A stretch of DNA of 64,000 nt from Euglena gracilis (GCA_039621445.1 CP154954.1:32651455-32715454), one strand, 5' to 3'; positions 17,301-64,000 are shown, counted from the first letter of the stretch. Notes: generated by a model not told the origin, from the sequence alone. Numbers and translations are program-made.

Positions 17301-19112
17301 GCAGATCTCCAAGTAGGCCATCGACACGGAGAAGGTCCCCCGCCTTCCCTCCACCGCAGAGGCAGCGGAGGGGGTGGTGGGGCAGGAGGAGGAGGCCCCG
17401 TCAGGCAGAGCCACCCGACGGCTTTGGGACGGCCCCGGCACGGCACAGGGGGCGGTGGGGGGGGGGGGGGACGAGCCGTTGGGTGGCCGAGATCGAGGCG
17501 AAGAGGTCCTTCAGCAGGCGGGGGACCAGGCCGGGGGCGTCGGGCGTGCCCATCATCGTGTACGTCTTCCCGGCGCCGCTGGGGCCTGGCAGGGGGAGGG
17601 GGGGTGGAACAGGGCAGGGAAGCGACGCAGACGCCATGGGTTGTTTGCTTCGACTCCGAGTCGCCGAGGAGGCTGCTTGCGCGGAGCCACAAACGAAGGG
17701 TAAGCCTGATCACCCCTGGGGGGGGGGGGCTGATCATAGGACTTGCTGGTAGCCCCCCCCCCATGTCCAACAACCGGTAACCTCTGTCCTCAAAAAAAAA
17801 AACAGCACAACAAAACCGGAGGGTACCCGGGAACTCCCCCTTCAAAACAGTCAAAATTTCGCTTCCAGCACTTTGCGCCTTGGTAACCTTAACTCAATTT
17901 TTGGTCCAAAAAAGTGTCCAAAGTGACATTTTTGGCCGATTTTGGGCAGCAAATTTTTTTCGGCCCAGTGATTTGTGGCGGGCTAAAATTTTTGGCCAAA
18001 CCTCCAAAAACGCGTCCTCCGACCGGGGGGGGGGGGTGGTCATGGGACATAGGGGGTCGTTGGATGTGGGGGGGGGGGATTCACCAAGCAAGGAAAGTTC
18101 CGGAATCCGGAACAAACTTTTTGATTGGTTGGAAGCTCCAGACCGTGGAGGGGCAAACGGCAGGGACTTCACCGGTGGGTATTGCACACCGTAGGCCAGC
18201 ACGCTGGCGCTGAAGCCGTCCAGGGCCAGGGCCAACGCCCGGGCCCCCACCTCGCGATACACGTCCGCCTGGTCGCCGCCCGGGCCCAGCACGCCGTCGA
18301 CCAGGAACCGCCGGGGCGGGGCTGGGCGGGCCGGGGGGCCGGCGCAGAGCACGACGTCGGAGAGGAAGGCCACGGGGGACGGGGAGGACGGGGGGCACGC
18401 CGCTGTCGGGCGGTGGGGGGGGGGGGTTAGCCCGGCGGGCCGGCGCAGTATGAAGTCGCGCGCCGCAATTCCGCCGGCGATCCATCGCGACGGTTTGAAC
18501 CCGACCGGAGCGACGTGTTCAACGCCTGGCTGATTCCAGGGCAGGACGCTCCAGCGGCAGGGCGACCCTATGAAGACGCAACCTGCCCTGGGGGGGGGGG
18601 GGTGTGCAATTGGTGGGGTTTGGTCGAGAGTTTGCCTTGGCCTGTTGTGCTGCCTGTGAATGCTGCACTGCAAGTCTGTAAAAAGAAAGGAGGACGAAAC
18701 CTGGTCTTTTCTCAGGTTCAGGCAACTTGGCACCTGCTCCGTGGCACTTTGGCCATTTGTCCCATGGGGGGGGGGAGGAAGGGGTAAAACCCCCAAACAC
18801 ACACACACACACACCGTCTTTGTGTTTGGGCAGGATTTCCAGACCCTCAGGGGGCTTTATATTTTGGGGGCTGAGGGTGCAAGGCAAACCACGCAACGCT
18901 TTCTTTTAAACCTGCCCCCCCCCACTTATAGCCCCCATCCCATAACACCCCCCAAAGTATAACCCCCCAACAAACCATTGCAGCAGCGTGGCCGAAGCGG
19001 TGTCTGCGTCCGGGGTGGCGGTGGGTCGGATGCGGACGACCACCCGGATGTGGTCTCGGAAGCCTCGGGCCCCGCAGGCAGGGGGGGCCCCTTGCCGGAC
19101 AGCAGCCTCCAT
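14139..19112 (-). CDS. Kinesin family protein: motor domain and neck/coil exons (spliced, GT-AG introns)
   Basis: Hand-spliced exons ~19112-18976, 18567-18524, 18402-18190, 17585-17293, 16896-16753, 16483-~16376, ~16125-16014, 15734-15632, 14974-14800, 14666-14421, 14184-14139. They give the ordered kinesin motifs IRVVVRIRP, FLVDGVLG..Q.DVY, AYG|PSGAGKTYTM (P-loop), SMAYLEICNER|ARDLL, NLVELAGSER, LNKSM..FGRVI, PFRDSLVTQLL, EETLATLR. Intron phases match at GT/AG sites. One 1-nt frameshift lies at a G14 run (17457-17470). Confidence 0.93.
14268..14420. repeat. (CA)n / (CACACAGCA)n microsatellite in a kinesin intron; others at 4766-4840, 25170-25205 (GAA)n, 29376-29418 (8-mer cggtaact) and 61641-61680 (GT)n
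   Basis: Direct reading of the sequence. Confidence 0.9.
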
Positions 19113-20334: not shown

Positions 20335-23300
20335 TCAAGTGCCGCAGGCGTAGGCCTTCGGCACAGTGATCACGTCTCCGTCCAGCACGATGCCGAGCCG
20401 GAACGGGGGGTTTGCATCAGGAAGACAGTGGCGGCGTCTAATGAGGGGCCCTGGGGGGGGGGGGGGGGGCGATGGGTTTCTGTCGCTGGAATCACACCGC
20501 CAGCTGATCACGGACCTGCCACCCTCCAAATTGTGGATTTTTCATGTCTTTTTTGTTCCCCCCCCTCAAAGATAATACATCTCTGGGTTGAGCAAAAATC
20601 CAAAAATAAGCCCCCCCCCCCAAATTTAAGACCCCCCTGACTGACTGCACCTCCGGGGACGGTGAAACACTTCCCTGCAGTATTCCCCAAAAATATCCTA
20701 ATTTAAGGCCCAATGATGAAGTTTCTGATTTTTTGACATTTCTATAATGAAAAAACATATAAGGAATTTCAATTTGGCAGCATCACTCTGAACCCCCCGT
20801 GGGGGCGTTAAGAGTGATCAGAGGGGGGGAGGGGGTCGTATGGAGCGACCCGGGTACCCGGGTTCTAGGAAAGTCTGGGTTAATGGTTGGGACAGGGTTA
20901 GGGTTCTGATCCTGGAGGTTGTACATTTATTGAAAATTAGGCAGAAGTTAGGTTCCATTCCAGATGAATTTGAGGCCGAATTTACGGCGAATTTGGGCAT
21001 TTTTTTGTACCCCCCCCTCTGTCCAACGACCACTAATGCACTAATGTTCGTCTCCGACCGGGGGGGGGGGGTCGCTAAAACAGCCAATATTCGTCTCCAA
21101 CCAGGGGGGGGGGGTCGTTGGACAAGGGGGTGGGCCCAGGTTGGCGAAAATTGGCCACAGATTGGCATATATAGGTACATGGCAATGCTGGCTTTTTTGA
21201 ACTTTTTTGGGCCTTTTTTTGGCCACTTCGTTCATTTTGGGTTATTTTGGGGCACTTTTTTTTCAATTTTTGGCCATTATTGGTCTTTTTTTACCGTTTT
21301 TGGCCATTCTTGGGCAATTTCTTGTAACTTTCAACCATTTCGCATCCATTTTAGTTATTTTGGGTAATTTGTTGCCTTTCTTGGAGCTATTGACCTTTTT
21401 TTTTACACCATTTTTGGGCATTTTCAGCCATTTTATGGTGGCCATCCCAAGAAAGTACAAAAAAAGCTTCTCTAAAATAAGCAACTGCAACAAAAAAAAG
21501 CAAAATTGAATTACACAAATCCCTCAGCAATTATTGAACCAACACACAAAAAGATCGCATCTGACTGGGGGGTGGTCGTTGGACAAGCCCGGTTGTTGGA
21601 CAAGGGGGGCGGGAGGAACGTTAAAAGTGTTCTTGAAAATCTTTCTGAATCGGGACTAACTTCCGGCCGAACTTGGTCCCAAAAATTAGCCAATTTCCAC
21701 CAGGCCGATCCCAACCCCAACCCTGTTCTTAAAATTAAGGGCCCACCCTCCCCGAATTGCCCAAAGGTGCCGCGGAAACCGCGTGTTTCTGCGGCACCAC
21801 GGGACCGAAAATGCGAAAGGTCGGACCCGGGTCCTCCAAACAACCCCCCCTTGATCACTCTTAACAGCCCTCCGGGGGGGGGGGGGCGGTAGAGTGATGC
21901 TGCCTTCAATTTATACCAATTTAAGTGGCGCAAAGTATGGAAGGAAACGTTTTGGTTTATTTTGGTTTATTTGGGAAATCAAAAAAATGTTTTTGGGGGG
22001 CCCAGGTCGGTCAAGAAAAAAATCAAAACAGACGCCTCCCCCCAAAAAGACCCCCTGGAGATTACCACTAATGGACCCCAAATAAGACCTTGGTCTTTGG
22101 GGGGAGGGGCTATTTTGCAGTTTCCGCATAAATCGCACCCTGCCTCATGTGAAAGCCAACTGACCGTTTTCTCCTGCAGGGTTCCAAGGATTCATGCGGT
22201 GCAACTCTCTCTGTGGCCCCATGCAAAAGTTTGGCCCTGTCCATTTAATGGATGACAGCACCAAACAGCCCAGAAAACAAGTCTCTCCCGCCACAGAGAT
22301 TTTGACCCGCCCGCCTGACACTGGCCGCGGAGGGCGGTGAGGGCTGCGCGGCCGGACCCCCCCACCGGGTTGCTGGCGAGGTTCAGGGACAGGCTGGCCA
22401 GCTGCGGGGCACGCCGCAGGGCCACCAGGCTGGGGGACCGCGGCCGCCGGGGCCCCTCCCAACCCCGTTCCCAACCCCGTTCCGGCCCGTCCTGGTCCGG
22501 CTCTTTTACGACCTCGGGGGGAGGGGGAAGGGAGGGGGTTTCCCGACCCACCCAGCCTGGGGTGGGACCCTCCCCTCCCAAAGCCGGGCCATCTGAAATC
22601 TCCCCCAAAAGTTGCCAGGCACCAGTTCCTGAGGTTCCCTCCACCTCTTCTGGCGTTGGGAATGGTGGGCAGCACAGACGGAGGGGTGACAACAACCCAG
22701 AAGCGGCAAGTGTCCGGTGGGAAGGTTGCATGTGTGTGTCGAAAGCACCCCTTCTCACAGGCTTGGAGGAACCCTTTTCCAGCGTCATTTCCATAGCGTA
22801 ACCCCCCCCCCAGTAGAAGCACGGGTGCGCTTATAGCGGACCACCGCCTCCGGTGGTGGGGGGGGGGTGCGCTACGTGCACGATTTTTGTTGATTTCCAT
22901 TAGAAATCCCATCAAAATGGGGGGTGCGCTTGTTGCAGACCGCCGCCTTCAGCGGCGGGGGGTGCGCTTTGTTTGGACCCTGCACTTGTAGCGGCCCCGC
23001 ATTGGGGGGGTTATGTGGTTGGACAGACCCCAATGTCCAAAATCAATGATGAGTCTCAGCGGCCGCCGTGCCGGCCGCCCCCTCATCCCCCACCCCACAG
23101 CCTAGCAGGTCCAGGTGCAGCACCCGCAGCCCCGGCGCCCGCCACAGGTCGCTGAGGGCCACCGCCCCGGCGGTGCCCACCGGGTTGCCTGCCAGGTCAC
23201 TCGCATGGCGCTGCCACTTGGGGGGGGGGGGGCGTTGGTGCGGCAGAGCGACCCAATTGCCGCTTTTTAGTAGGGTTTTTGTCGGGTTTCTGGGCAGCTT

Positions 23301-26300
23301 CACAGACGGGGCTTTGCCTGAACAGGGTAGGCTTCTCCAAACCCGGTGGAGGGGGGGGCTGCCAGTCCAGTCAGGCAGGGCAATTCCGGTGTTGAAAATC
23401 AACCTTTTTCAAGTACACTTTTAAAAAGACACTCAAAATGACACGCAGTCGTCGATCAGACCAAAGGCAGCAACAGAGACCCCCCATCATCCCCAGCACG
23501 CCGCTCTGGACGCTTGCCAAGGGGCGGGCGAGAGCACAGGGGAGTGCTGCGCTCTGCATGGCAGCCCCCTGGCGGAGGTGCAGCACCTCCAGGCGGGGGC
23601 ACGAGTGGAACAGGGCCAGCGCCCCAGCCCCGGCTGCCTGGACGCAGTTCCAGGACAGGTCAAGGACCAGCGACCGCAGGGCGGGGGCCTCGCGGAGGGT
23701 GGCCAGCGCCCACGCGCAGGGCTGGTCAGGAATGTCGGCCGACCCCCGCCGGAATGTCGCCGACCCCCGCCAGAACGTCGCAGACCCCCGCCAGAATGTC
23801 GGTCCCCCCGTGAATGTTGCCGACCCCCGCCGGAATGTCGTCGACCCCCGCCCTGCCCAGATGGCACTGGGCAAATCAAAGTTCCTTTGGCACCAAAGAA
23901 GCCAACACAGGATGCTTGCTATGAAATGGGGAAAGGGGGGGTGGTTGTCCCCCACGCCTAACCCACCACCCATACACCCACAGGGTGTCCGGGAGTCCCG
24001 CTCAGCCCTGCCCGCGCGCCGTCGTCTGACAGCCGGTTGTTGCTGAGGCGCAGGGAGAACGTCTCCAGGAATGGCAGCGGCCAGTGTGTGGGGGGGGGGG
24101 ACAACCGGAGAAACGAAGCCTGAGTTGAAAAATCAATGACATGGGGCTTTGCAAGGCCCACTGGCGACCGACAAATACCGCGGATGGATAATTACCGCGC
24201 ATGTTGTGCTGTTCGGCGGTGTTTAACTCCAGCAGCCAGTTACAACATTGAAAACCTTTGGGACCTCAGTTATGCTGGAAAACGGGGGGTTGAAATCTGT
24301 ATCATTTGTGCATCTGATGATCAGAAAAGCATTCTGATAGTTTCACTCACATGCCAGACGCCATTCTGATTCCGAAAAGATCCGGCTTTTGTCTATTTTC
24401 GGTCAGTCGTCTTAAAATGGGCACACTGTTATTCTGCGCTTTCTGGGCAGGGAGTGCATTGTTAACCCCCGCAGTAAATGTCACCGCGGCAATTGCTACC
24501 CAGCAATTACCCACCAGCAGTAAACCCCCCCCAAATATAAACCCCCCTTGGACCTTGAAATCCCGCCCAAATATAAAAGCCCCCCTCCGGCGCAAAGCGC
24601 CGGAAAAAAAATCGACAAAATCTCTCCTGAAATTGTGATTTTTGGCAGAACAATTTTTACCAAAAACATGTGAAAATTGTTCCTTCGCCCGAAAAGTGAA
24701 GTGTTTGGCCCCAAGGGTGGGCGTATTCGTGATTTTGGACCGAAAAAGTGACTACCGGTACTGGATCCCGCCAAGAAGTTGATTATTCCGACCGAATATA
24801 AACTCCCCCCCAAATATAAAACCCCCCTGCGGGGGTCTTGAAATTTCCGCCCGAATATAAAACCGGGGGGTTTTTCATTTGCGGGGGGGTTTAATTGTCA
24901 GTTGCCAGCATGCGAAGCCCACGGTTCGGTTGCCTTGCCTGCATTTTTGCGAGGACGAGGAAGGAAGAAGGTAAGGTAGGAAAGGGCAATATCGAGGGAT
25001 AAGAAAAAGGGAACATTTTTATTTCAAATACTTTGACAAAAATGCAAGGGTTTATTTTGGTCCTTCTTGATTCTGTCTTGTGATGCACGTTGTTTTTATT
25101 TTCGAACCATTTTGCTGCGTTTTGAGATAAAATCTCTCTGGATGAAGACAACGGAAAAAGAAAAAGGAGGAAGAAGAAGAAGAAGAAGAAGAAGAAGAAG
25201 AAGAAAAGAGAACGTTTGGTGCTTTGGTTGGGTTGCTCTGCTTTTTGGTGTGCTGCTTAGAGAGCCACTCACACAAAGGTGAAACGTTTTCAAAAGGCTA
25301 TTTTTCAAAGAAAAACTGCCAGGTTGTTATCAGAGGGAAGACGGGTCGACAGAGACCTGTCATTTGCCTCGCGGAAGGGGGTGTGAGCGCCGGCCGCGCC
25401 GGCAGGTGCCGCAGCTGGGCCACGGCGGTGGCGCCGAAGTCGCTGACGTCGTTGTCGCCGAGGTCCAGGGCCAGCTGCCGCAGCAGCGAGGCAGCGCGCA
25501 GCAGCGCCAGCCCCGGCGGCAGCCCCCGACTGCCTGCCCCCAACCCCGACCCTGACCCCTCCTCACAGCAGGGGGAGGGGAGGGAACACAAAATGGACTC
25601 GCAGAAAAGCGACGCGAAACACAAAAAATAGAAATTAACAGAAAAAAATGGATTTAATGTAATTTCAGAGGACTGGGTGGAAGAACGAATTCGAAAGGCA
25701 TTATGTTGGCAATTTCACTGTTTGCAATTTTTGCACGGTGGACAAAAAGGGGAAATCTGGCCCAAAAACGCAAAACTAAGCCTAAGTCGAAATCACTTCC
25801 CAGCCGAACTTGAAAAACCACCAAAAGAAACCGCACAAAAAATTACAAAAAAAACACGCAAAAACACACTCAAAAAGCAAAACACACAAATTTCACCGAA
25901 ACCGAATCACATAACACCCGCAAAAACTGTGTTTGCATTTTCCCCAACACCCCCTCTGCCCGCCCACTGACCAGCGGAACAGTGCCCAGTCAGGGCCCAC
26001 ACACTGTGCCGCCATTGCCGAGGCGGTTGGTCCAGAGGTCAAGCGTCCCTTCGCAGGTGTCACTCTACGCCCATTGCCACAAAAAAGGCGTCCCAGCCTG
26101 CCAGCAAACCCGCTGTCTTGCCAACAAATGCCTGACTGTTGCATCCAATAGCCCCTCCCCTTCCACACTCGAAAGCCATTTGCCAGAGACCCACTCAGGG
26201 AAGAAGGTCTTAAAGGTAGGCCCACTTTTCATAAACGCCCTTTAAGCCTTATTAAATTCAAAGCCTCTGGAAAGGGAACCACCATTCCTTAACGAAAGCT

Positions 26301-29300
26301 TAAAAAAAAAGCTGTTCACGCATATTCAATCAAAAACCTCAAACCGAAGGGAAATGGGCGAAATTTATTCGCAGCAAAAACAGGTGATTAGGTCCTTGAC
26401 ATATTATGGCAGAGCTTGTCAGAATTTTACGGCGAATATACAAGAGGGGAGAGGTGAGGGATGCCCAGAAACAGCGAAATGCCTGATGTGGGGTGGACCC
26501 CCCCACTCCCCCACCAGGATGGGGTGAAGGGAGTGGTCGTCCCCCTCCCCACCCACCACAGCAAGGTTTGCAAAATTCGAGCTGAAAATGAAGTCACAAA
26601 CTCTCGGCAAAAACAAGCTAATTCCAGGGGAAACTGATTTCTGGCATCGCTGGAAAAATTTTCTGTCGGACACTCGAAAAAATGGGGTTTCCAACTGTTT
26701 CGATTCTGACCCCCATTCTATCCTGGGATGGCCCTTGGGACATCCCTCAAAAAATCGACGCCTTGAAATTTTGAAAATGCCTGTAAAAACCTTAACCGGG
26801 TCGGTAAAATGAGCCCCCATCAACCCCCCAAAGAAGTATGGGAGCGCTCAATGCAATCTGCCGCCTCAGATGGCGCTTCTATTTTGATCCCGCCTGGAAG
26901 ATTTTTGTTGATATTCTTCAGAAAGCCCAGCAAAGTGGAGACTGCCCGACCAGGTGCTCCACCGACCATTATGGTCCGGGCCTACCGAACAGACTTCTTC
27001 TTGAGACCCCCACCGGGTTGGGTTTCGGCGCAAAGCGCCGAAATTTTTTGGGAAATGCCCTCAGACGGCCCGATTTTGTCCCCCCCCCCCGGGGTCCAGC
27101 GCTGGGCTGGGTGGGTTGGGGACCCCCCCTCCAGCCTGGGACCCCCTAGGGGGGGGTCCGGTCCCAGACCCACCCACCCACCCCGGGGGGGGGGGGGGCT
27201 GCTGGCTTAAAAAAAAAAAGCCTGCTACCGACCTCTATGGCTTTCCAATAAAGTTAATTCAATATTCTTGTGGAACATGAAGAAGGCCCATTTTTAGCAA
27301 AGAATGCACCTCTGGGTGCACCTGTGCAAATAGGTTGGACCATGCAGCCGCCCAGAGCTTCTGTTGGGGGGGGGGGGGGGAGTTGGGATCTGAAAATTGG
27401 TCCGTTGGGTTGCTCATTGAACCGGTTTAAACAGATACATATGTGGCCGGCAGGCGGGTAGCAGGGGGGCCCCCCCCCGGGGGGGGGGGCCTGCTACCCA
27501 CGACCCTGCACCTGCCAACATGGCCATTAGCGCAACATGGCCATTAGCGCACCTAACCCTACTCCTTCAATTAACCCCATAATAGCGCAACATGGCCATG
27601 TTGCACAACATGGCCATGTTGCGCAATATGGCCATGTTGCGCTATTATGGGGTTAATTGAAGGAGTAGGGTTAGGTGCGCTAATGGCAGGTGCAGGGTCG
27701 TGGGTAGCAGGGGGGCCCCCCCCGGGGGGGGGGCCCTGCTACCCGCCTGCCATGTTGCCTTGTACAAAAACAACTGCAATGCCATCTCCACACCCAGAAG
27801 ACGTTGTTGCACAATCTTTGGTGCGGGCGCAGTGACTTCAAGGCGGTGCAGATTATTCAGCAGAAAAAGCGGCGGTGTCTCCCCGCCCCTCCAGTGCCAC
27901 CTGGGCAGCCACTCCAGTGACGGGGAGGCGCCCAACGCAGCCAGCTCCTTCGGCGCACCTTCCCCCAGCTGGTTCGTGCCAGTGGCCCACCCCGGTCCTA
28001 CACCCGCCAGGCTGAATTTCATTAAGCTCGTCTCGGGGTTACTTCGGGCGGTACTAACCCCCCACCCGAGTTGTGCCTGGTCGTGAGGAAAAATTTCCCC
28101 CAAAATGACATTTTCCGGCCTTCGAACCCCCCTCCCGAGGACTGACTTCAGCTATAAGTAATAACACCCCCTCCGACAGATGAAAGCAAAGAAAAAAGAG
28201 AATAGAATGAGCGGGAATGTTGCAAAAATCACAAAAAGGGATGGTTTGGTGCAGAAAATATGTCGAAAAGAGTGCAAAAAAAAAAGACAAAATATTGATG
28301 ATTAGAACCTATTGAAACGCTTTTGGGTCGATTCTTGACTTCAAAACTGTTGCCCTGATAATAACCTCCAAATATCACCCCTCCCCGGGACCCTGACTTC
28401 GAGTGTCCAAAAAATAACTGGGGGGATTTTGTTTGGGGGGTTCATGTGCCCACCCTCCATCCTGGCCGCAGTAGGGTTTATCATTAGCAAGTGTGATGAT
28501 CACCTATCAATGGTATTACAAAGCGAAGAAGGCGCCCCAGGGCAGACAAAGCCCTCAGATCTGACCCCCACCCTGGGTTTGACATTAAACCAGGTTTTGA
28601 GTAGTGCTGAGCTCTTAAAGGGACATGCATGTGATGGAATGCCGAAAAGACTAGCATTGCAAAGTTCGCGTAATTTATAATTTACAAATTACACTCTTTC
28701 AATTTACGGTGACTTTCAGTGATTTTACGGAACTTTCTGAAATGACAATGATAATCCCCCCCATACACCCCATACCCGTTTTATAGGATTTTTTGACTTT
28801 TTTACCCATTTTAGAGCCAAACTCCATGGGTTTCGGGCCCAAAACGGGGCGCAGGGTCGAAAAACGCTCATTTTTGGCTGAGAAACAGGTTTTCCGGGTC
28901 CGGGAGGCCAAAAAGAATCGTTTCGAACAAAAAAAAATTCGATTTTTTCCGACTTCTTTGACCCGTTCCTGGCCAAACTGCATGGGTTTCGTGCAAACAA
29001 AAAAAACAGGGCGCTGGCGGGTCGAAAAACGCTCATTTTCGGCTCAGAAACAGTTTTTCCGGGTCCGGGAGGCCAAAAAACATTGTTTCAGGCAAATTTG
29101 ACCAAAAATGACCGAAAACGGCCAAGTCACATCAGGCCAAAACTGTACAAAACGGCCAAAATCGGCCAAAAAAATGACCGTAACTCGAGCTAGGCGGGGA
29201 GTTGCGGGGAAATCAAAATACTGTTAGATAGGGCATTTTAAGGGCTTCAATTTAGGTCTCCAGACATTTCCTTTGATTTTGCTTCATTTTTGAGATATCT

Positions 29301-32300
29301 TAAAACATCGATTTTTTGACCCCGAAAACAGCCCAAATGGCCCCTGAAATGGGCCAAAATTGGCCGAAAAATGGCTAACTCGGTAACTCGGTAACTCGGT
29401 AACTCGGTAACTCGGTAACGGAAAATGGTAACTCGGGCTACACGAAGAATTGGGGGAAAAATAAACCATTCCAAGGGCTTCAATTTTGCAGTCCGGACAT
29501 TTTCTTTGATTTTGATTCATTGTCGAGATATTTTGGAAAAACCGATTTTTTGACCCTAAAACGACCCAAAAAACCCCCCCCCAAAAATGGCCGTTTTGGG
29601 CCGCAAAAGCGCGCCGGAACACGGGCCAGGCGTGCCAGCGGCCAAAACGGCGAACGGGGGCGATAGAGGGCCTCCGGGGGTGCATTTCGTCAGACCCACA
29701 TTTCCGGAAATAATGTACGTTTTCTCGAGATATTTTCAAAAAATAGATTTTTTGACCGATTTTTGGACCCCAGCAAAATGGCAAAGTCGGAAGAGAGGGG
29801 GGGGGGGGGGCGGGCCGCCTCCACCTTCTGAACAGTGGCTGAATTACAGACCCCAATCATTATCTGGTGCACATTAAAGTCCTGCCAGAGGGGAATGAGA
29901 GTCTGCGGCCTTTTATCGGCATCGTCCTCAGTCCGGCCCCCCTCGCCCATGAATGAGGGGGAGGGAGGGACCTCCTAAACCCCCCCACCTCTAACCCCTG
30001 GGGGGTTGTAGGTGGGGGGTCGCTTGAGCTCTTATCTCTTTATGGGTAAGAGCGAAGCTTACCCCTGGGTCCAACCCCCCCCCCTCCCCTCGGGCCACCT
30101 TGGGAACCGACTGATTATCACCATGATCCTGGCCCGGTTCCCGGAATTTTTTTTTTCAGTCGCGAGCGACTGGATTTCTAGTTTCCGAATGGCAGCCCGA
30201 AACTACTGGGCCCCCCCGGGGGGGGGGGCCAGTAGTTAATCCGGGGGGTCAGAATAGTTTTTTTGTGTTAATGATGGAATAGGGTCAGGTGCGCGACTTA
30301 GGCTTAGGGTTAGGCCTAATTTATAGACGGGTGTTCGGTGTACAAGTTAGGCCTAACCCTAAGCCTAAGTCGCGCACCTAACCCTATTCCATCACTAACG
30401 CAAAAAAATTTTTGACCCCCCGGATTAACTACTGGGCCCCCCCCCCGGGGGGGGCCCAGTAGTTTCGGGCTGCCTTCCGAATCACCTTCGTTTGACCCCC
30501 AACTCCCCGTCAGGCCCGAGTTATTCACGCACGAAGGCTATGAAAGGGGGTTCCACCCTGTATCTGGAACATCCTTAGCCAGGCCTTGATTGTTTTCCTC
30601 CACACGGCCATATGGGTTCGGAGCACTGGCCGAGGCCCAGCTGGAGCACCACCGTCTGCAACTGACGCATCTCCCGCAGCTGCGCCAGCCAACAAACCCC
30701 ATCGGGCCCAGGGGACAGGTTGGAGCATTGGTGACGGAATACCAGTGGGGTCGTCGCCACGGGGAGTGCCCGTATGATTGGACAGGGGGAGTGCCGACGA
30801 ATCTAAATGAATAATTTGGTTTGATATCCAAGGGTTGATATTGGCAGCTTTTTACCCAGGAGGCCAGGCCCACTAGTGTGGGATACGGTTAGGGTTACGA
30901 TTTGGCCCAAAAGTAGACCCAATTTTGTCCTCCACAGTGGGAAAAGGGCAGCTCTATGGATCAGGCTCTGAATGAGCGAGTTGCACAACAGGGGTTTCCC
31001 AAAATTTCAGATTTTCACAACGGGTTTTCACCAAATTCTCTTGCGTGTCCACTGCAAAAACAAGTCATGATCAAAACCATCACTTCAACGTCAAACAATC
31101 GTCGTCATTGATTGGCGGAAACAATGATAGCCATGGCCACTGCCCTCTGCCCGCGGCGGAGCTGGTTCTGGTTCAGGTTGAGGGCCAGAGAGCGCAGGGA
31201 CGTGGAGGCCCGGAGGCCGGCGAGGGCCTCGGCGCCGTCCGGCCCGAGGTGGTTGCCGGACAGGTCCAGGCGGAGGGTGTGGAGGAGCGGTGCCTGCGCC
31301 AGCAGCCCGGCGGGGGCGGCCTCCCGCCTGCGGCAGTGGGGCCCATCGGGGACCTGGCCGGCGAGGGGGGGGGGCACACCAACCCGAGGGCCCAAACTGA
31401 TCAATGGCCCGCCTGTCGCGGCCATTGAAACGCCGCCACTGTACAAACAGAGCTGGAAGTTGGAAAGTCACAGCGGTCACACACGGGGCACGGATCCCTC
31501 GTTCGGGTGTGGCAGAGGCCGCCCCCCTCGCCAGCGCCGCCGCCCCGCCGGGGCCGATGTGGGCCCGGGCGGCGTCGAGGGACAGGGTGCCGAGGCGGGC
31601 GGCGGTGCGCAGCCCCGCCAGCGCTGCCAGCCCGCCGTCCCCGATGGGGTTGCGGCCCAGGTTCAGGTGCCGCCAGGGCCGCGGCCGGTGGGTCGCCGGC
31701 AACACCTGGCACAACACTCGGCCGCAATCGACAAGGTCTGGCGAGTGGACCGAGGCGGAGGGGCCTCCAGGCAGGGATCATCATTTTTCAAACGCGCCAA
31801 AACCTTAAAATGTTTTTAAATGCAGCTTAAAAATATGGGCAGAATTTTTCTCCGATTGAATGAAACAAAAATGAAAGCACAAAATCTCGACAAAAACAGG
31901 CCAGCTCCGGGGAAAAAATGATGATTTCTGGCATTAAAAAAATAAATAAAAGTATGTTTTTGATTTTTTGATTTTGGACCTCGTGCAAAATCAAAAATGT
32001 TGGTTCGATGCCCACACAGCCCTTGAACAGCCCTGAAAAATGGCTCCTTTAAACGCCTTAATGGACAGGGCTGAAAAAATGCCTCCTTAAAGCGCCTTAA
32101 AAGTCTTTAAAGCCTTAAAGTGCCATAAAAGCCTTAAAAAATGCCGTAAATTTTTGAGAAAAAAAATTCCCTTAAAAAATGCCTGGCTCCCGGGCTCTTT
32201 TTCAACGACCCCCATGGGTGCCTTGTGCTGTAGGTGCCAAACCCCCCCAAGGGTTGTGACCTTCTTAAGAAGCGTGGTTGCTCCCCCTTTCTTTTTATTT

Positions 32301-35300
32301 CCCATGCCCTGTGGACTGGGGGTGCCGGGGCGGGCCCGGGGGCCGCCGCCGGCCCTGGCCGCAGCGTGTGCAGTGCCGGGGCCGCCCCCAGTCCAGCCAG
32401 CGCCTGGGCCCCCGCCACGCGCAAGGGGGTTCCCGTCCAGCGGGCTGGGATTGCCGGTGGAGGGGGAGGGTGGGGGCTCTGGCAGCGCCGGGCACCCCGC
32501 TGGCCGGGCCGATGTCGGTTTTGTACACGTCCAGCGACAGCCACTGGAGGCCCGGCATGTGGGCGAGGCTCCGGCCCGCCGACCTGCCTGGATTCGGTGC
32601 CCCCCCCCACCACCTCGGGATTGGGACATAAACGGGATGCCACCACTCCCTTCCGCTGGCTCTTGTTCACTCTCACAAACTCTGGAGCATTTTCTTTGTC
32701 CAAGGACCCAAGCCCATTGAAGTAGAACGAAAAGGGTGGCTGGAAACCTGCCTTTCAACAGAAATCTGCCGATGCCAAGCTCAACTCAAACCTCAGCAGA
32801 AGAATGCAAATGATCAATGAACCAAGAGGGAAATGGGGGGGGAATAACTGATATCGGAGGCCCTCAGAGAAATTGAAGGAAAAAACTGATATCAGGAATG
32901 TTCACATTTCTGCTGGAAGGACACGATTCTGAGCTACACCCTGAATAGAAGTAACTAAAAATCACGTACACCTGCAAATTTTTTCAACTGCTCCAGAAAT
33001 TTTGGAACATTGGTTGGCATTTTTTTCAACAAAATATTACAAAATTATACTTCTTCTTATTTTGGAAACATGCTGCTTCCACAACATATGCAATTTGTTG
33101 GCCCCAAAAAAATCAAAAAATGACAAAATTTGCCAAAAAATTTCGTCTTGGGATAAATCTGGTCCAAAATTGAAGGCAAAATTATTTACCAACAGAACTT
33201 AAAGGAAAAAAAAAGAATTGCCGAATTGGCCGGCCTTGCCGGGTTTTGACAAAAATTTGCCAAGATTTGGAGAAAATGTAAACACATACGAAAAAGGTAC
33301 TTGTGTTACCCCTTCGTTTTTATATCATCCGTGGAATGGCCGGAACTCATTGATGCGATAAATTTTGCAAAGCAAAAAAATTGGAGAATTTGCAGGAAAT
33401 TGCGGGAATTGAGGCAAAATGCAGGAAACCGAGGGGAAACTGCTGAAAATTGTGGGAAGATTGCAGAAAATTGCGGAAAATTGCAAAAATAAAAAAAAGT
33501 GGATCAATTGGCTGTCCATTATTCCCCTAGGGAGGAGGAATTTTCAGGAAAAGTTTTACAAATTTAAATATCAGTCCTTTGTGACGCTTTTCTCTGCACC
33601 TTCAACATTTCCCAATGCTTTTGATACCCCCCCCAAGGAATGGAAAATACAACGCCACCAGGCACCCAAAGGCAGCTTTATGGCAAACCACTTCAAGGGA
33701 GACCACAGGGAGGGCGGCGGCCGCCAGGGCAGAGGCCCCGATGTCCCCAATCTCGTTGTGGGAGAGGTCGAGGCCAGGCTTTTTTTTTACCAACCCCGGG
33801 GGGGGGGGGCTCGGAGTGCCTTGGAGTGCCTGCCCAGGCAGGCACCCCCCTCCCCGGGGTGGGGTCGGCACCACCTTAAAAAACAGCCTGGTCGAGGCAC
33901 AGCCGAGCGAGGCCCGCGTGGCGCTGGAGTCCAGCCAGCTCCGCCGCCCCGAGCGGCCCCACCCGATTGTTGTGGAGGTCGAGCATCGGCGGCAGCGCCC
34001 TTTGCGAGGTCCGGCATTGGAGCGGACGGCGGTCGCAGTGAGGCAAAGTTCTCCCAACTGGATGAGGATTCTATTTTTAAGCGCCCGGGGGGAGGGCGGT
34101 CCCCCCCCCACCCAGCCGGGCACAGGACCCCCCCCCCCCGGGACAGCGGGGACTATCCCCAAAAACGGACTCTCTGAAGGCATTTCCCAAAAAAAAAAAC
34201 CTTCCAGCGCTTCGCGCTGAAACCCGGACCTCCAGGGGTTCGGCCCGTCTGGGGCCGAACCCCCCACCCCGGAAGGAGGTTGGGCCCCAGCCCCCCCCCC
34301 CCTGTGGGGGTCTTCTGAGCTAAAAAGAAGCTGGTTCAGATATCAGGAGATGACAGGCCCGGGTACCCCCTCTTTGTCCAAGGATGTTGTTGTTACACAT
34401 CATTGTTCCAAGAACGTGTTGTTGACACAGGGGAGGGCAACAACTTGCCGTGTGAACGGCACAGCATTTCAACGGAAATGCCAGGTGGCATTCCGAAAGT
34501 GCGCTTTGGCACAGTTTCAACGACACTTGTGCAAGAGAGGCTGCCCTTACCTAACCCCCCCAAATATAAAGCCCCCCCCTTCACATTTGGGCGGGATCTC
34601 AAGACCCTCAAGGGGGACTTTATATTTGGGGTGGGGAGTTTAAAATTGGGGGGATCGACTGTTTCTGGGTGGCCCATCCTGACTTTGGCAGCCTTCAACC
34701 ACAGTCAAGTGCCAAAATTATACCAAATTTTCATTGTGTACCTCAAATTTACCTCAGAATTTGCAATTTTTGTCCAAAATGGAGAATTTCTGGTGGGAAA
34801 TTGTTACATCCACCCATCTGTTTTCCCTGATCGGCGGGTGTCACATTGGGGAGGGCTTTATATTCGGGCAAAACCAAACCTCCTGGGGAGGTTTATATTT
34901 GGGGGGCTTTATACTACCCCCCCCCCCCCACTGGCCGTGCCATATGGGCCAGGGTGGCAAACGCCTGGCACACGAGAGGTGTGAAGGACAGTGGGCAGGG
35001 TGGACAACCCACGACAGGCTGAGAGTTGGCAGTGAGTGAGCACTCCATAATGGGAATGACCAAGAGCACATGAATAGCCTGAAACAGCTGAATCCAGCGA
35101 CAGATGACGTTTTTTTTTTGAATTTCAACTGCCTTTTTTAAACGATTGGACCGTTCTGAGTTCGCGCAACATCACTACTGTCTTGGAAATCTAGTTGCAT
35201 GCCAAAGATATAGACGTGGTTGACAATTTGACACAGTGAACACAATAGAACGAATGCAGTGGCTGGAACGGAGGAAGGCCCTCCAAAGCCAATCAAAAAA

Positions 35301-38300
35301 GGATGATAATAATAAAAAGGTGAAAAAAAACTCTTATAGCCGTGTTATCAGCACCTATTTTTTTAAGAAACGGGTGACAAGAAGTCATTCCAGTGTGATG
35401 GCCAGTATGGGCCTTCTTCATTGTAGATGGAAACTGTGGTTCCCCCCAATGCAATTCATCAATATCATTTAGTTGTTGGACTGCAGGTTTTTGGCTAATA
35501 AAGTTCACCCTGGCAGGATTGTCACTTGTTGTACTTTGGCACCATCTGCACCTTGCCTGTTGGCACCTCTGCGAAAAGAAGAGGTGCCAAGAGGTGCCAA
35601 ACAAGGTTCGTTCCAAATAAAACTGTCCTGGGAAAGCGTTATGGGGACGTTGCGTTACGGTGCTTCCCATTGCATAAACCACTCCACATGGTGGAGAGCC
35701 CAATCAAACCAGCCAAGGCAGTAGCACCCTTGTCCCCCACGGCGTTGTCAGAAAGGTCAAGCGCCAGAACACGAAGGGATGCGGGGTGGGACCTCTGCCG
35801 GTTGGAATGCACGCCAGCCCCCCCATTTCCCAGCCATACCCATAGGGGTTCAAGGATTCCCGTCCAGTTCTGGGGTCCAGACCCCTGCCAAGCCTTCAAT
35901 GCAGGGATTTCTTAAAGACCAGGATGGAGGGAGGGAGGGGTCCCCCCACCCACCCCTGCCAGAAGGCTCCCAAACACACATGCAAAGTGTATGTGCCGTG
36001 TGCTATGGAGACACCTGCCGTTGTGCACACTCACTGCAATGTATTTAGATGATTACACCGGCATTTCACCCGTGTCGCCCAAAGGTTGCTTAAATGTTGC
36101 TGCTGCTTAACTTTGGAGGGGTTGTTTAAATTTGGAGGGGTAACCCACCCTGGAGGTTCCAGCAGACCAACTCACCCCACACCCCCCAGGTCCAAACATT
36201 AAAAAAATTCTGTCTAAATGAGGGGTTACATGGAAAACAAAAAACCCAGAACTTGTTTGAGTACCTTTTCTTTCCCAGAAAAAAGAACATTTTTGTGGTC
36301 TTGAAACAATTTTGGTTTTCAAAAAAAATAGGGGTTGAACCCTAATTCTGATGGAATTCTGAAGAAAATTGACAGAAGGGCCCAAAGACGTGTGCCCCCG
36401 CTTTCCGCACATCCGTGCTGAAATTTGGGGGGTTTACAATGCAATTCCCGGACACTCTTTCCTCGAGTCCTCCTCCACACCACAACTAATTCAAGGGCTG
36501 TTTCCATGGTGCTTTCACGTCAGACATACCTACTGCAAAGGCTTCAAAATTAAAAAACCCTTTCTAGAATTTCTCCAAACTGTCCCCTCACATGAGGATC
36601 GCCACCATTTGAATCCCGGGGCAAAGGCTCAATTTTGGTGTTTTTGGCCTGACCTAAATTCTTCCAAGTTTTGTTTCCCCTGCGTTCCGCCCAAGAAATG
36701 TAAAACCTTAATGCTGTCCCACACATTTCCTGTCAGGCTCCATGGTATGGTCAATATTCCCTTGGATTCCAGTGTGGCCAACTGCCCTCTCCACTGGAGT
36801 AGTGACTGAAGTAGTGACTGACCGGACTGGCTGGTTTTGGAAATGACCCTGGTGGTCGGTGCTGGACCCCACCTGCAAAACATGGCTGCCTCTTTGAGAG
36901 AGGTAATTGCGCAGTTGCATTAATGATCCTTTCAAATGATGAATTTGCACACGTTGGGCAAATGGGACGAGATACGGCTGAAATGCGAGATCGGCTGCCA
37001 AAGCTAACTTCGCTGGAAAAGGCAGCTGACTGGCTGGACACCCCTGTGGGCAGTGTCCAAGCGAGGCCAGGCTCCCATGCTGCTTGTGATTGGGATTTGC
37101 TGTTGAAATGTGATGCATCAAAGCAGGGTCAGAAGATAAATTGGCAGAGACCAAAACAGAATCTTTGAGGCGTGCCAATGCAACGGCACCATCCGACGTC
37201 ACTTGGTTGTCCCACAAGTTCAAGCAGAGGCAGGGGCGAGGTTTGCAGTTGGGCTACCTCCGTATTTTTTTTAATCCATTCCTTGTGACATTCAATTCCT
37301 TGTGCACTGGACAAGAATTACAGAAAATATACACAGGATGACCCGGGGGGTCAGTGTTATCTGATGTGCTTGGCATACTTTCGCGTGCTTGGGACACACA
37401 AGGGTGCAGGGGGGGGGATAGATATCAGAGTCTTTCGGAAAAACTGCGTAAAAATTGCAGGAAATTTTTAAATGTGTTTTTGAGAATTAGTGCACTTCTC
37501 CTGGAAGTGGGGGTTGGAAAAAACCTCACAAATTTGCTCATTTTGCAACACAGGTGTATCTTTTGAGCCGTTATTCACATTCCAACAAAAAGGTCTAAAA
37601 ACTTGATTTTTGTAATTTGGAACATGCTCGTTCGGGAAACATGGAATTTCTTGGTGAAAAAGCCAAAACTGGCAAAAAGTTGCCGAAAACTTTGGTCTCG
37701 GGTAAAATCTGGTCAGGTGAGCAGAATTATTTCCCAGCAGAAATTGGGGGAAAACCTAAAAAAGACCCAGAATTTTGTCAAGTTTTATAATATTTTTGGC
37801 AACTTTTGGCAAATTTGCAACAAAATGACAAAAAAGCACCTGGTTCCCTTGTGAAACGTTCAGGAATGGCCGGAACTCATTTCGCCTTCCATTTCAGGTT
37901 CATGCGAGAAAAAAAGCTCAAAGGGAAAAAAATGCAGAAAAATTGCAGGAAGTTATGGAAAATTGCGAAAATTGCGGAAAAATTGCGGATATCAATTTCA
38001 CCCCCGAGGCGGACAAACTGCCTTGACCCCACCCCTGGAGCATACCACCCACCCCTACAAATGGTGTGCTCCCACTCCTCCAAGGGCAGCCCTGGACCTA
38101 TCAGCCCCGTCCGTGGAGCCCCGGCCCTGGGCACAGGGTGTGCAGGGAGGCGGCCCGCTGCAGCAGCGCGAGCGCCTCCGCCCCGGCACTCTCGATCTTG
38201 TTCTTGTGGAGGTGCAGGGTGAGGGACGTGAGGGACGCGCAGGTGAGCACACAGTGAGGCTGCCACTGGACTTCCATTCTCCATCTGTGAGTGAACGCAT

Positions 38301-39100
38301 TCATCCCAATATTGAAGGAAACAAATGCTGGAACCAGAATCACCCAACGCCCATTTAAAGCCAAAAAAGCTTCACATACAAAATTCAATAAACCACAATT
38401 TATGGCAAAAAGTGTGCAACGACTTGATGCTTTGCTTTCGTGTGCACAGTCCGGACAAAAATGACGGGAAACAAAGATGATGGGAAACCACCAAAAATTT
38501 CCCGTCATTTTTCCATCATTTTTTCCCCCTGTACCCTTTCTATGCCCTTTTGGAGGAACCACATTCACAGCTGGTCAAATTTCACGCACAAAGGATGGGG
38601 GTATGACATATGATCAAGTTTGGGATGTGTTTTCAATACAACCACAAAAAAAAGAACACCCAGAACACCATTTTGACACTTTCTTGGAATTTTGAGGTGC
38701 TGCCGAAAAACTCCCACTTATTACCTTCATGGAAAATTGAAATTTCCATCACTTTTTCCAGAATAAAAATTTTCCCATCATTTTATTTCCCGTCATTTTG
38801 TTTCCCGTCCGCTTCCGCCATTTTTGTCCGGACTGTAATTTGGAGAAAACTTGGATGTGCGTGGGCAAATGTCATTTCAAAGCCAGCTTCAATGGGCTGC
38901 GGAAATCGCCGAGCACATTAGCACGTGAAATAACTCCTCCAATCATCCCACCTCACAATTTGAATTTACCAAAATTTCAATGCAACGGCAAAATCAATTG
39001 TTGTTTGTATTGCATAATCGTATCCACAAAATGCAAGGTGCTTCTCCGGACGAAAAGTTGCTGAGGTTGCTCAGAGCTGCCACGCCACCATCGCCAAGCA
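20335..39100 (-). CDS. Leucine-rich repeat protein, RI-like/NLRC3-like ~28-aa repeats (LxxLxLDLxxNxIGxxGAxALA), split mostly by nonconventional introns
   Basis: About 18-20 short exons that join into successive LRRs: ~39095-39050, ~38240-38133, 37225-37158, 35782-~35690, ~33985-33894, 33769-~33722, ~32570-32506, 32416-32361, 31668-31530, 31306-~31159, ~30709-30632, 27974-27907, 26047-~26008, ~25514-25401, 24072-24014, 23711-23575, 23198-23073, 22431-22327, and a possible last exon ~20420-20335. Example peptide: LHTLRLDLSGNHLGPDGAEALAGL. The 5' end was not located. Confidence 0.9.
20776..21904. mobile_element. GG-terminal non-autonomous DNA transposon (Merlin-like) with a nested MITE
   Basis: TIR GGCAGCATCACTCT, perfect TSD ttcaattt. 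Confidence 0.85.
23717..24010. mobile_element. MITE-like core of nonconventional intron 23712-24013
   Basis: Termini CAGGGCTG / CAGCCCTG and a TSD cccacgcg/cccgcgcg (7/8 match). Internal ~21-bp tandem repeat (gaatgtcgccgacccccgccg) at ~23730-23850. Confidence 0.8.
26990..27224. mobile_element. hAT-type MITE (CAG-end family) nested in an LRR intron
   Basis: Ends CAGACTTCTT / AAAAAGCCTG, TSD ctaccgaa/ctaccgac. Confidence 0.75.
27449..27751. mobile_element. GG-terminal palindromic (foldback) element
   Basis: Nearly fully self-complementary, termini GGCAG/CTGCC, TSD atgtggcc/atgttgcc. Confidence 0.85.
30191..30474. mobile_element. GG-terminal palindromic (foldback) element
   Basis: Arms of ~130 bp, termini GGCAG/CTGCC, perfect TSD ttccgaat, TTAGGG-like motifs near the centre. 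Confidence 0.88.
33775..33890. mobile_element. 116-bp hAT-type MITE inserted in an LRR exon (predicted nonconventional intron 33770-33893)
   Basis: TIRs CAGGCTTTTTT / AAAAAACAGCCTG, with a perfect 8-bp TSD gtcgaggc at 33767-33774 and 33891-33898. Confidence 0.92.
38447..38835. mobile_element. MITE with 17-bp TIR
   Basis: CAGTCCGGACAAAAATG / CATTTTTGTCCGGACTG with ttcccgtc subterminal repeats. No matching TSD was seen. Confidence 0.7.
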
Positions 39101-42100
39101 ATGAACCCTGTACAGAGTTTCTTTTTTGGGCTGAGGAGAGTGGGGACACTCAAGGGCAATATGCGACGCCCTTCAATGTGTCAGGACATCATGGCCCAGA
39201 AATTCCTTCCTCTTGCTGCTCAAATAACGCATCCCCAGGGGCCTGGCTACAATGACATTTCGGTTGTGGGGACATTTTGGTTCACTTTGGTTGGAGGGAC
39301 ACACTTCTATTACAGGGGCATTTTGAAACACTTCGGCTAAAGGTGGGGATGAAACTTACTTTTGGTTTTTAAAAAACTGGGAGAAACCATTTGCTTTTTT
39401 AACTTTCAATTACTTTTTGAACAAAAACTGGGCCAAATATTCTTCAAAGCTTGTTTGAGATAAAATTCTGCAAATTCTCAAAATACTCCGATTTTTCATT
39501 TTGACCTTTTTCCTTCGCTAAAATTTTCCTTTTATTTTTTATGTTTTCATACCGTTTTCTTTTTTAAAAAGCACTGTTTTTGCTCTTTTTCCTTCAAAAG
39601 CAACAGAATGCCAACGCTTTGAATATGCATTGAACAGATCAGAATGTCAGTGTCAAAGCGAATCCTCCACACAGGGTTTGTTGCCAGAAAATTACACAAC
39701 GTTCCGTCAGTAAAATTTGATTGGATCTTTTTGTGCTTCTTTTGAGACTGGAAGGGCCCAAAGAAAGAGGACGCCCGAGACTCTTTGGGGAGACGCCCTA
39801 AAACTTACAGTCAATGCCTGAAAAAGGGTCCAGCATCTTAAAAAGAATCCTGATCCCGCAGCTGCATTGTCTGTACAAGGGAGCTGCCAAAGCTCTCCAT
39901 GCAGCCACGGAGGCACCACGAGCACCTCCCACCACATCCCGAGGATGAATCACCACACAGCTGACTTTCCTATGGACTTATCGAGGGCGTTGTTGGGTTG
40001 TGTAAATTCAACGTTCCTTGGTTGCCTTCATTTCAGTCTTGTGAGAGGTGAGTAGAAAGACAACCTTGGTGAATCATTTGCTGGATGTCGTTTTTTGCGA
40101 TTTCTGGAGCTTGGAGGACAAAATCAGTCAGCAATGGGGAGTGTTCGATTTTCGTTGTTGACATCCCTCATAATTCACCCCGAAACCCTCCAAACCCCCC
40201 CAGGGTGTCATTTATGGGGATTTTGAAGGGAAAATCCAAAAGAACTGTCATCGGCAGCGAGCAAAATTTCTTATTGCAGAGCGGTGGGTGTCATTTTTGA
40301 TTTATAGAGTGGCACCTACCGTATTTGTCACCCCTGGGGGCACTGCCAGACCCCCTTTGTTGATGTCAACGCACCCTAATTGGACAATTAGAGTGCGTTG
40401 CCAGTATTCCACCTAATTGGCACTTTTCTGACACTCCTTTCGCACTCCAAAAAAAAAGTTCTTCGGCTGGTCCTTGGGGATTTAGTACCCCCTACCCTCA
40501 CCCCCCCTAATTGGCCTCCAGGACAACACTGGCAAAAATTTGGCCAGGCTCCAACGACTTCCCCAAAAAATGACTATTGAAACAAATGTCCATCAAAAAG
40601 TGGAGAAAAAATTCATGAAGCACCCAACCGTGCACAAAAAAAAACAAATTTTGTGCTGGGGGTGATAGCAGGGGGTGGGATCCTTGAGTCTCCTTGCTTG
40701 TCCCCCCCCGGCTAATTGGCTGATGGGGGGTCTGAGGGAACCTGGTCATTATAAGTCATAAAGAAGGTGTGAAATTGCCACCCTTCGGCACACAGGCAAT
40801 ATTCCCCCTGGCAGCAGGGAGAAGCGCCAACACCCCCCCCCTTTATTTGAGCACACCCACGGGTCAAAAGACCCCCCAAATGCTCAAACGAGGGGGGGTC
40901 GGAAATTCGGCTTTGAGAGAGGACAAAAAAATTTCGGCGCCTTTGGCGCCTAAAATTTTTTTTCCCCCAGACCCAAATGTTCAATTAAGGGGGGGGTCAA
41001 ATAAAGGGGGGGATGGTATTGACCATTTTTCACCAACTCCCCCAGGGGGAGTCATTTTCTACTCTGCTAAAGACCAGCCAAAACCATTTTCCTGGAAAAA
41101 TAGCAATTCAGCACCTGCCTGGGAGGTGGGTTGGTCACTTTGGGATCCAGTGGAATTGACCACACATGTGAAGCACGACCAAAAAAAACTTTCTCTGACA
41201 GAAATGCCTTAAAATTCACTTTAAATTCTTGGCCAAAATGGGTAAAAATCCCTTAAAATGCCAATGCCTTAAAATTTCTGAGGGGAAATTTTTCCTCCAA
41301 CCCAGCAAAAATGAAAGTGCAAAAATCTCAGCAAAATAACAGGCCAAATCCAGGGGAGGAAAAGCGATTTCTGGCATCGTTGGAACATTGTCTAGTCAAA
41401 ACTGAAAAAAAAAAATGAGCTTTTTGCCCTCTTTTTCTTGGATTTGGACCTTGTGAAAATCAAAACGTTGGTTCGATGCATGCCTGGATGGCCCTTGTAC
41501 CACCCTGAAAAGTGGCGCACCAAAAAGCCTCAAAGTGCTGTTACAAAGCCTTAAAAAAGCTTAAACAACCTTAAATTTTTGAAAAAATTCTGCTTTGAAA
41601 AAGGCCCACCTCCATGGTGATTGGCATTTGCCAATCAATTGGTGCAGCCTTGGAAGAAATCCACAACATTGGCTGCTGTCACTTGGCACCAAATATGACG
41701 ACTGGCTAATAGTGATCGAAGGCGGTGGCAAATCTGGCTCGGCATCAAGAGAAGAATGAATGTGCATCTCTTTTTTGATGTACGTTCATATTCCCTCCCT
41801 TTAATCCCCTCTAATTCTTCGACAATTATCGTTAATTCGACAATTTCGGGGGCAGTAGTGTGTCGGTTCATGGGCAAAACCTGCGGCCTACGGGACAACA
41901 CTCAACAAAGAGCCCAAAGAGCATCACAACTTCAATTACCACCGGGTTTTATGCAGCCGGCGGTTTTCAGTACGTACCCAGGGGAAACCAGGTGGTCCAG
42001 TTCGGTCCAAAAGACCCCCCTCCCTAGGGTTGTGCCAATTAATCGTTTCGAGCAGGCGAATAAATCGGGGTGTCTCAGACGACTAACGATCAATTGGTCC

Positions 42101-63509: not shown

Positions 63510-63614
63510 GCACAGGCTGAATTTCAAGGCAATGCCGACCGGGGGTTCCTGCCAGGCTGTATTTTAGTCGGGTGCCGACCCCACCCCGGGGGGGGGGGGG
63601 CAGGCACTCCAAGG

Positions 63615-63919: not shown

Positions 63920-64000
63920 CTCCAAGGCCCCCCTGATCCGACCGTAGGGCACATGGCCAAAAGTGCCCTGGCACAACCCCGGCGCCGGGGAGCCAAAAAT

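Follow-up and report, generated by a model that had tools for sequence, protein, structure and literature searches.

The stretch of DNA considered here, a window of 64,000 nucleotides from Euglena gracilis (GCA_039621445.1 CP154954.1:32651455-32715454), carries on its minus strand a gene for leucine-rich repeats (LRRs) of the ribonuclease-inhibitor (RI) type, built from units of 28-29 residues and spanning positions 22327..41686. From 41656 to 22432 the gene is interrupted by at least 19 introns, none of which has GT/GC..AG borders in any equivalent register (0/19). Both ends of the gene lie outside the resolved span. An LRR motif scan recognizes 13 units on the minus strand, from 38217 to 22386, and finds no comparable run on the plus strand; one exon open reading frame (ORF) matches Pfam LRR_6 with 28.8 bits (cut-off 23.4), and five other exon ORFs match more weakly. 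When the 19 introns are removed, an open frame of 424 codons with regular 28-29-residue LRR units results, ending at a TGA after NRLGNGGTV; the next LRR exon begins near 25510. The span 22327..41686 represents one RI-type LRR gene or possibly two adjacent genes, the latter being allowed by the contig depth along it, which is 220 upstream and 41-51 downstream.

The RNA material comprises three raw RNA-seq runs and one contig set that is presumed to be RNA, all from the same organism and aligned to positions 20500-40499. Joint counts refer throughout to the 15 RNA joints listed out of 74. Twelve of these 15 are clean, and 11 of the 12 are also carried by raw RNA-seq reads. Thirteen introns are thus supported by a joint (12 clean joints and one loose-end match), and a fourteenth by a partial overhang. 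For each intron, a flank repeat was scored in the register of the terminal stem by comparing the last 5 exon and first 3 intron bases with the last 5 intron and first 3 exon bases, with the register of ambiguous junctions chosen by motif. The introns are the following.

39902..41656, minus strand: intron of 1755 nt with CT..TG ends, lacking CAG/CTG, flank repeat 4/8; at 39901 a loose end of an RNA contig is an exact match to 41657-41686.
39108..39855, minus strand: nonconventional intron of 748 nt, CAG at +4 and CTG at -8, flank repeat 5/8; joint 39106->39855, carried by the contig set and by raw reads of 3 runs.
38235..39049, minus strand: nonconventional intron of 815 nt, GAG at +4 and CTG at -8, flank repeat 5/8; joint 38232->39048, ambiguity 5.
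37226..38132, minus strand: initially annotated intron of 907 nt with CAGGG/CCCTG ends, flank repeat 6/8; joint 37223->38131, ambiguity 3, carried by the contig set and by 3 raw RNA runs.
35782..37156, minus strand: intron of 1375 nt, in one register with a GT start and CC end, flank repeat 3/8; joint 35781->37157, carried by the contig set and by 10 and 4 raw reads.
35028..35709, minus strand: intron of 682 nt, GT..CC, in-register pairing 12/14, flank repeat 0/8; joint 35027->35710, ambiguity 0.
33988..34996, minus strand: nonconventional intron of 1009 nt, CAC at +4 and CTG at -8, flank repeat 3/8; joint 33986->34996.
33770..33893, minus strand: nonconventional intron of 124 nt, an intact element resembling a MITE (a miniature inverted-repeat transposable element), with the inverted repeat CAGGCTGTTTTTTA/complement (13/14) and a perfect 8-bp duplication GCCTCGAC, 8/8; joint 33765->33890, ambiguity 9, carried by the contig set and by 6 raw reads.
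32571..33721, minus strand: intron of 1151 nt with GC-rich ends and no CAG/CTG, flank repeat 2/8; joint 32570->33722.
32417..32505, minus strand: initially annotated intron of 89 nt, CAG / TTG, flank repeat 5/8; a 9-letter contig loose end at 32503 with 3 ambiguous bases (12 nt), frame kept.
31669..32360, minus strand: initially annotated intron of 692 nt with CAGGGCCG/CGGCCCTG ends and an 8-bp perfect terminal stem, flank repeat 5/8; frame and LRR period kept, not among the 15 of 74 joints listed.
31307..31529, minus strand: predicted intron of 223 nt, stem GGGGGCGGCC/GGCCGCCCCC with 13/14 paired, flank repeat 2/8; LRR period, with the edge of contig piece 31152-31305 within a 1-nt ambiguity.
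30704..31152, minus strand: predicted intron of 449 nt, CAG / CTG, flank repeat 4/8; LRR period, with contig piece 31152-31305 stopping at the 5' site of the intron.
27975..30631, minus strand: initially annotated intron of 2657 nt with CAGTG/CACTG ends and high-copy repeats inside, flank repeat 3/8; frame kept, not among the 15 of 74 joints listed.
26048..27906, minus strand: initially annotated intron of 1859 nt with CAGGTG/CACCTG ends and a 6-nt acceptor spacer, flank repeat 2/8; frame kept, not among the 15 of 74 joints listed.
25470..26000, minus strand: approximate span of at least one further intron, required by a frame stop before the next LRR exon; its borders within about 26000-25470 could not be placed by motif or frame.
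24077..25404, minus strand: nonconventional intron of 1328 nt, CGG at +4 and CTG at -8, flank repeat 6/8; joint 24072->25401, ambiguity 5, carried by the contig set and by 2 raw reads.
23712..24013, minus strand: initially annotated intron of 302 nt with CAGGGCTG/CAGCCCTG ends, an 8/8 terminal inverted repeat, flank repeat 7/8; joint 23707->24010, ambiguity 4, carried by the contig set and by 1 raw read.
23199..23574, minus strand: initially annotated intron of 376 nt, CAG / ATG, in-register pairing 12/14, flank repeat 1/8; joint 23198->23575, ambiguity 0, in the contig set only.
22432..23072, minus strand: intron of 641 nt, GCGGCCGC stems with 12/14 paired, flank repeat 5/8; joint 22431->23073, carried by the contig set and by 1 raw read.

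Seven of these introns had been described in the initial annotation as frame-restoring introns whose ends pair in the +4/-6 register and lack a GT-AG pair, and this observation is confirmed and backed by RNA. A recount of the sequence agrees with the coordinates, registers and ends of all seven, which are among the 19 introns that have no GT/GC..AG register. The junctions of 38132-37226, 24013-23712 and 23574-23199 coincide exactly, within their ambiguity, with RNA joints, and 32505-32417 fits a contig overhang; those of 32360-31669, 30631-27975 and 27906-26048 keep the frame and the LRR period but are not found among the listed joints. CAG occupies +4..+6 in 7/7, and positions -8..-6 read CTG in four introns and TTG and ATG in one each, while 27906-26048 has its CTG one base further in (N6), matching the tolerance of +1 at the acceptor that is described in part of PMC12501133. 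The flank matches of 7/8, 6/8 and 5/8 originally given recount as claimed, and the other four introns match at 5, 3, 2 and 1 of 8. As to the extent of the series, these seven form a motif-selected subset: they are real, but 10 further RNA-supported introns had been missed, nine of which come from listed joints and one (41656-39902) from a contig loose end. Several of these 10 are without CAG/CTG.

A terminal stem is a general property of the series. Counted inward from +4/-6, the two ends of an intron pair at a mean of 9.68/14 positions, versus 6.44/14 for cross-paired ends of different introns, which supports the pairing in this register that the initial annotation had put forward. Several introns without CAG, starting with TGA, TGG or ACG, still pair in the same register. 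CAG is found at +4 in 5/13 RNA joints (0.80 expected), and CAG and CTG occur together in register in 4/13 (0.016 expected). Minimum-energy folds pair the ends in 3/3 introns folded (124, 302 and 89 nt), with stabilities relative to shuffles of z -3.56, -1.81 and +1.50, respectively, so that only the first is clearly more stable. The total pairing of the stem is uncorrelated with flank-repeat identity (rho 0.10), and the stem does persist, as had been proposed, where the repeat is at background: introns with 0-2/8 pair at 12-13/14.

The excess of 8-nt repeats was measured against a cross-pairing of different introns, which preserves composition, splice-code preferences and LRR codon content, in 20,000 permutations. 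The mean match of the 19 introns is 4.0/8 versus 2.79 when cross-paired, a value reached in 0/20,000 permutations; the same holds for the 14 RNA-supported introns (4.29 versus 2.70; 0/20,000). For the seven initially annotated introns alone the excess is modest (mean 4.14 versus 3.02; 348/20,000 permutations reach the observed value). Position by position, the excess is confined to -5..+3 and drops at +4 and -6. The scores are spread widely, with one intron at 8, one at 7, two at 6, five at 5 and ten at 4 or less. The share of cross-pairs with at least 5/8 is 0.114, from which about 2.2/19 would be expected and 9/19 are observed, and scores of 8/8 and 7/8 occur in at most 0.3% of cross-pairs.

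The upper end of this spread is occupied by the 124-nt intron, 33893-33770, whose RNA joint can slide over 9 positions, as a perfect GCCTCGAC duplication would lead one to expect. Its first ~75 nt recur at 63553 with 87% identity, which makes this a second copy of the family, and the terminus of the 63553-copy is found in RNA reads with a break at 33872. This copy (63553-64000) is interrupted after CTCCAAGG by another element, 63615-63919, with 16-nt perfect repeats and an 8/8 duplication; beyond the nested element the family copy is unlike the 124-nt intron, and the window ends before any 3' terminus. A relaxed scan for inverted repeats was swamped by G/C runs, and elements with complex repeats were picked by eye. 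Nine other inverted-repeat elements with 8-bp duplications of 7-8/8, situated in noncoding or intronic DNA, were found in the window.

20776-21904: element with 8/8 duplication.
27449-27751: element with 7/8 duplication, nested in intron 26048..27906.
30191-30474: element with 8/8 duplication TTCCGAAT, nested in intron 27975..30631.
38457-38825: element with 8/8 duplication GTCCGGAC, nested in intron 38235..39049.
43015-43330: element with 7/8 duplication.
48406-48837: element with 8/8 duplication.
55649-55941: element with 8/8 duplication.
58007-58438: element with 8/8 duplication.
63615-63919: element with 8/8 duplication.

Counting the 124-nt intron, the window thus holds eight elements with an 8/8 duplication. 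The noncoding copies have terminal inverted repeats of 15-19 nt. Three noncoding elements (48406-48837, 55649-55941 and 43015-43330) have CAGG-N9-AAG termini, as in the 124-nt intron; all three are MITE-like and have cores of G/C runs. The empty sites of 48406-48837 and 43015-43330 have no open frame across them. Different termini (GGCAGCATCAC..., CATAGCTGGCG...) with perfect 8-bp duplications characterize 20776-21904 and 58007-58438, and a GGCAG-type terminus is also nested in introns, at 27449-27751 and 30191-30474. The three elements nested in introns of the LRR gene score 7-8/8, and the introns around them 5, 3 and 2 of 8. This nesting is the sole internal evidence of relative age; it is consistent with an age series and does not prove one.

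It is likely, in our judgement, that part of this series of at least 19 nonconventional introns in an RI-type LRR gene arose from insertions of MITE-like elements, and that the spread of repeat identity corresponds to times of insertion. The euglenid noncanonical splicing machinery would remove such introns by reading the terminal stem that joins their ends, typically a CAG at +4..+6 paired with a CTG at -8..-6, and would cut 3 nt before and about 5 nt after this stem. These 3 and 5 nt would together equal one copy of an 8-bp target-site duplication, so that an exonic insertion of an element of this kind would be removed at the RNA level: splicing would take out the inverted-repeat element with one duplication and restore the reading frame that preceded the insertion. 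At least part of the series would then be former insertions of small MITE-like DNA transposons with 8-bp duplications. The duplication copy on the intron side would erode freely, and the stem and the lengths of the spacers would be maintained. Since the intron-side copy would be free to mutate and the stem kept, the most likely reason why scores run from 8/8 down to background is that the insertions took place at different times. The initial annotation, which had read the series as an age gradient of former insertions, is thus upheld in part. The reading of introns as transposon scars is well supported for part of the series; for the degraded introns a transposon origin is presumed from these, and an age gradient across the introns is plausible and consistent with the data. 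An attempt to date introns by duplication of repeat units was abandoned, as three pairs coincide in LRR position, by a rough estimate not clearly above chance.

Several results weigh against this interpretation. Eight of the 13 RNA joints are without CAG at +4, a motif described in part of PMC12501133 as weakly conserved in euglenids together with its CTG partner. A register-free best-window statistic gives a weaker excess (57/20,000), which bears on the scores above as ambiguous registers were motif-chosen. Repeat identity is weakly related to the length of the leading stem (rho 0.38, p 0.11, n=19; 0.61, p 0.02, n=14) and not significantly related to intron length (rho -0.25, p 0.31). Five of the 19 introns, three initially annotated and two predicted, have no joint among the 15 of 74 listed. 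A BLAST of every intron against the window returned repeats within introns and dispersed repeats held in common, whereas a second copy of intron termini turned up for the 124-nt intron and for no other, and no transposase was found among 20 ORFs scanned against Pfam. Furthermore, ten of the 19 introns score 4/8 or less and are indistinguishable from cross-pairs, so a past duplication in those is assumed, not seen; and two low scorers confirmed by RNA, 35709-35028 (0/8) and 37156-35782 (3/8, in the alternative register), have GT as their first bases and may have arisen by conversion of conventional or "intermediate" introns.

The last two points favour a mixed origin, in which only the introns with clear repeats would be transposon insertions and those at background would derive from conversion of conventional or "intermediate" introns or from repair of double-strand breaks, processes that are both proposed in parts of PMC3935182 and PMC4770533. 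Two clean classes would not be expected to leave five introns at 5/8 and 9/19 at 5/8 or more where about 2.2 are expected, a pattern of partly decayed repeats, and the low scorers share the +4/-6 stem register; a mixed origin is held to be unlikely, though it retains an appreciable chance of being correct. That the repeats could come from sequence preference alone, either of the splice code (a purine at intron +1 and exon +1 and a C at +3) or of LRR codon periodicity, is highly improbable. Cross-paired introns do already match at 2.79/8, a consensus with purine and C positions is reported for both junctions in PMC4770533, and several introns occupy the same LRR position by our own reading. The cross-pairing retains these preferences, however, and is never seen to reach the observed mean; it yields 7/8 and 8/8 with great rarity, noncoding elements have the same 8-bp duplications, and substitutions at exon ends are tolerated (PMC12501133).

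Some of the initially annotated introns might be drawn wrongly, if the exons around 30632-30703 and 27907-27974 belonged to another transcript structure or if two genes were present. An RNA contig matches the window only to 30650 and continues with 255 letters absent from it, which suggests a paralogous LRR transcript with common downstream exons and leaves the gene structure around 30632 unproven. The unequal contig depth, the intron without fixed borders near 26000-25470 and the absence of 32360-31669, 30631-27975 and 27906-26048 from the listed joints point in the same direction. Yet all three introns preserve the frame and the LRR period of 28-29 residues, their terminal stems are in the expected register, and only 15 of 74 joints are listed, so that absence from the list is no evidence. 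A mis-drawn structure at these positions is quite improbable.

The locus is of the known euglenid nonconventional intron type, and the CAG/CTG code, the MITE hypothesis and an 8-nt repeat at a recent intron have already been published. The introns described in euglenids (Milanowski et al. 2014, 2016; PNAS 2025, PMC12501133) are the same in the absence of GT-AG, in the terminal stem and the 3/5-nt spacers and, for a part of the introns here, in CAG/CTG; they are also the same in having slidable junctions with direct repeats and in being removed from mRNA. Nothing differs in kind, but the LRR locus is unusually dense, with at least 19 introns that are all nonconventional, and one of its introns is in addition an intact multi-copy element with an 8/8 duplication. 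PMC3935182 gives the +4/-6 consensus, direct repeats at junctions and a hypothesis of MITE origin; PMC11282704 reports inverted repeats and repeats like target-site duplications and favours a MITE origin; and PMC11170887 states the transposon hypothesis. PMC12501133, a functional study of 2025, defines experimentally the CAG/CTG code, in which the donor spacer is strictly 3 nt and the acceptor spacer 5 nt with +1 tolerated, gives 71.8% nonconventional introns (about 72% in Euglena agilis) and 84.4% slidable introns, and calls their origin unclear.

A comparable single case is intron 4 of Euglena agilis gapC, a strain-specific intron with 8-nt direct repeats, longer than those of other introns, which the authors consider a possible mark of double-strand-break repair (PMC4770533, in part). 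With its full 8-nt junction repeat it corresponds to the "young" end of the series proposed here. Unlike in that case, the 8-bp repeats of the LRR window also flank noncoding inverted-repeat elements, which favours transposition. Introners and MITE-derived spliceosomal introns of Micromonas, Aureococcus and dinoflagellates are similar in that, according to part of PMC11282704, insertion makes the intron, the frame is restored, and duplication and inverted repeat contribute to the splice signals. They are, however, spliced by the spliceosome at GT-AG or near-canonical sites, whereas the LRR gene has 0/19 such borders and its cuts are set by distance from the stem.

In the full-text literature outside subscription journals and supplements, no paper was found in which the two spacers are equated with the duplication (3+5=8), element families are named or the decay of the repeats is measured. 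Tentatively, and with confidence that stays a little short of even, euglenid noncanonical splicing may be regarded as an RNA-level "precise excision" tuned to a hAT-like class of MITEs, the 3+5 spacers being its 8-bp duplication. Were this true, any such exonic insertion would leave the RNA by splicing and the frame would be regained, nonconventional introns would for the most part be insertions at various stages of decay, 8-nt repeat identity could be used as a genome-wide clock of intron gain, and hAT-like MITEs would still be active in the genome. Transposons of the hAT superfamily and their MITEs have 8-bp target-site duplications and short inverted repeats that start with CAG/CAGGG. The likeness of the elements at the LRR locus to hAT is confined to duplication length and terminal bases, which does not establish membership. 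The locus reveals no new kind of system; it provides a compact worked example, in which one intron, verified by RNA, constitutes an intact inverted-repeat element present in multiple copies and flanked by a perfect 8-bp duplication, noncoding DNA holds sister elements that have its terminus, and neighbouring introns have a partly or wholly eroded duplication and a persisting stem. The hypothesis of transposon origin becomes testable genome-wide by a simple 8-nt statistic.

Other features of the window are the following. Within the 302-nt intron 23712..24013, a 21-nt tandem repeat occurs six times at 23729-23852. Intron 30631-27975 holds, at 28500-30500, dispersed and tandem repeats in which the RNA contig word depth rises to 13,538, and ~80% identical copies of these lie 14 kb away, at 43761-44321. 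G-runs near 27181-27198 and 29797-29814 are break points of many RNA reads. The single metagenome 21-mer match of the 124-nt element, to a high-GC contig with no other likeness, was set aside as chance. A protein search with a 45-residue exon against longer proteins, meant to reveal a transcript-derived protein across the junctions that have no listed joint, gave 7,898 candidates and 0 at E<=1e-5, and an Rfam scan of the whole 64-kb window gave 0 matches; a marker gene was not found either. Pfam on 10 other long ORFs of the window found no transposase, the only match being a sub-threshold one to a kinesin motor (16.7 bits, cut-off 29.3). This match falls in a 320-residue open frame at 17897-18856 on the minus strand, downstream of the LRR gene, and the kinesin-like frame may be an exon of a neighbouring gene.

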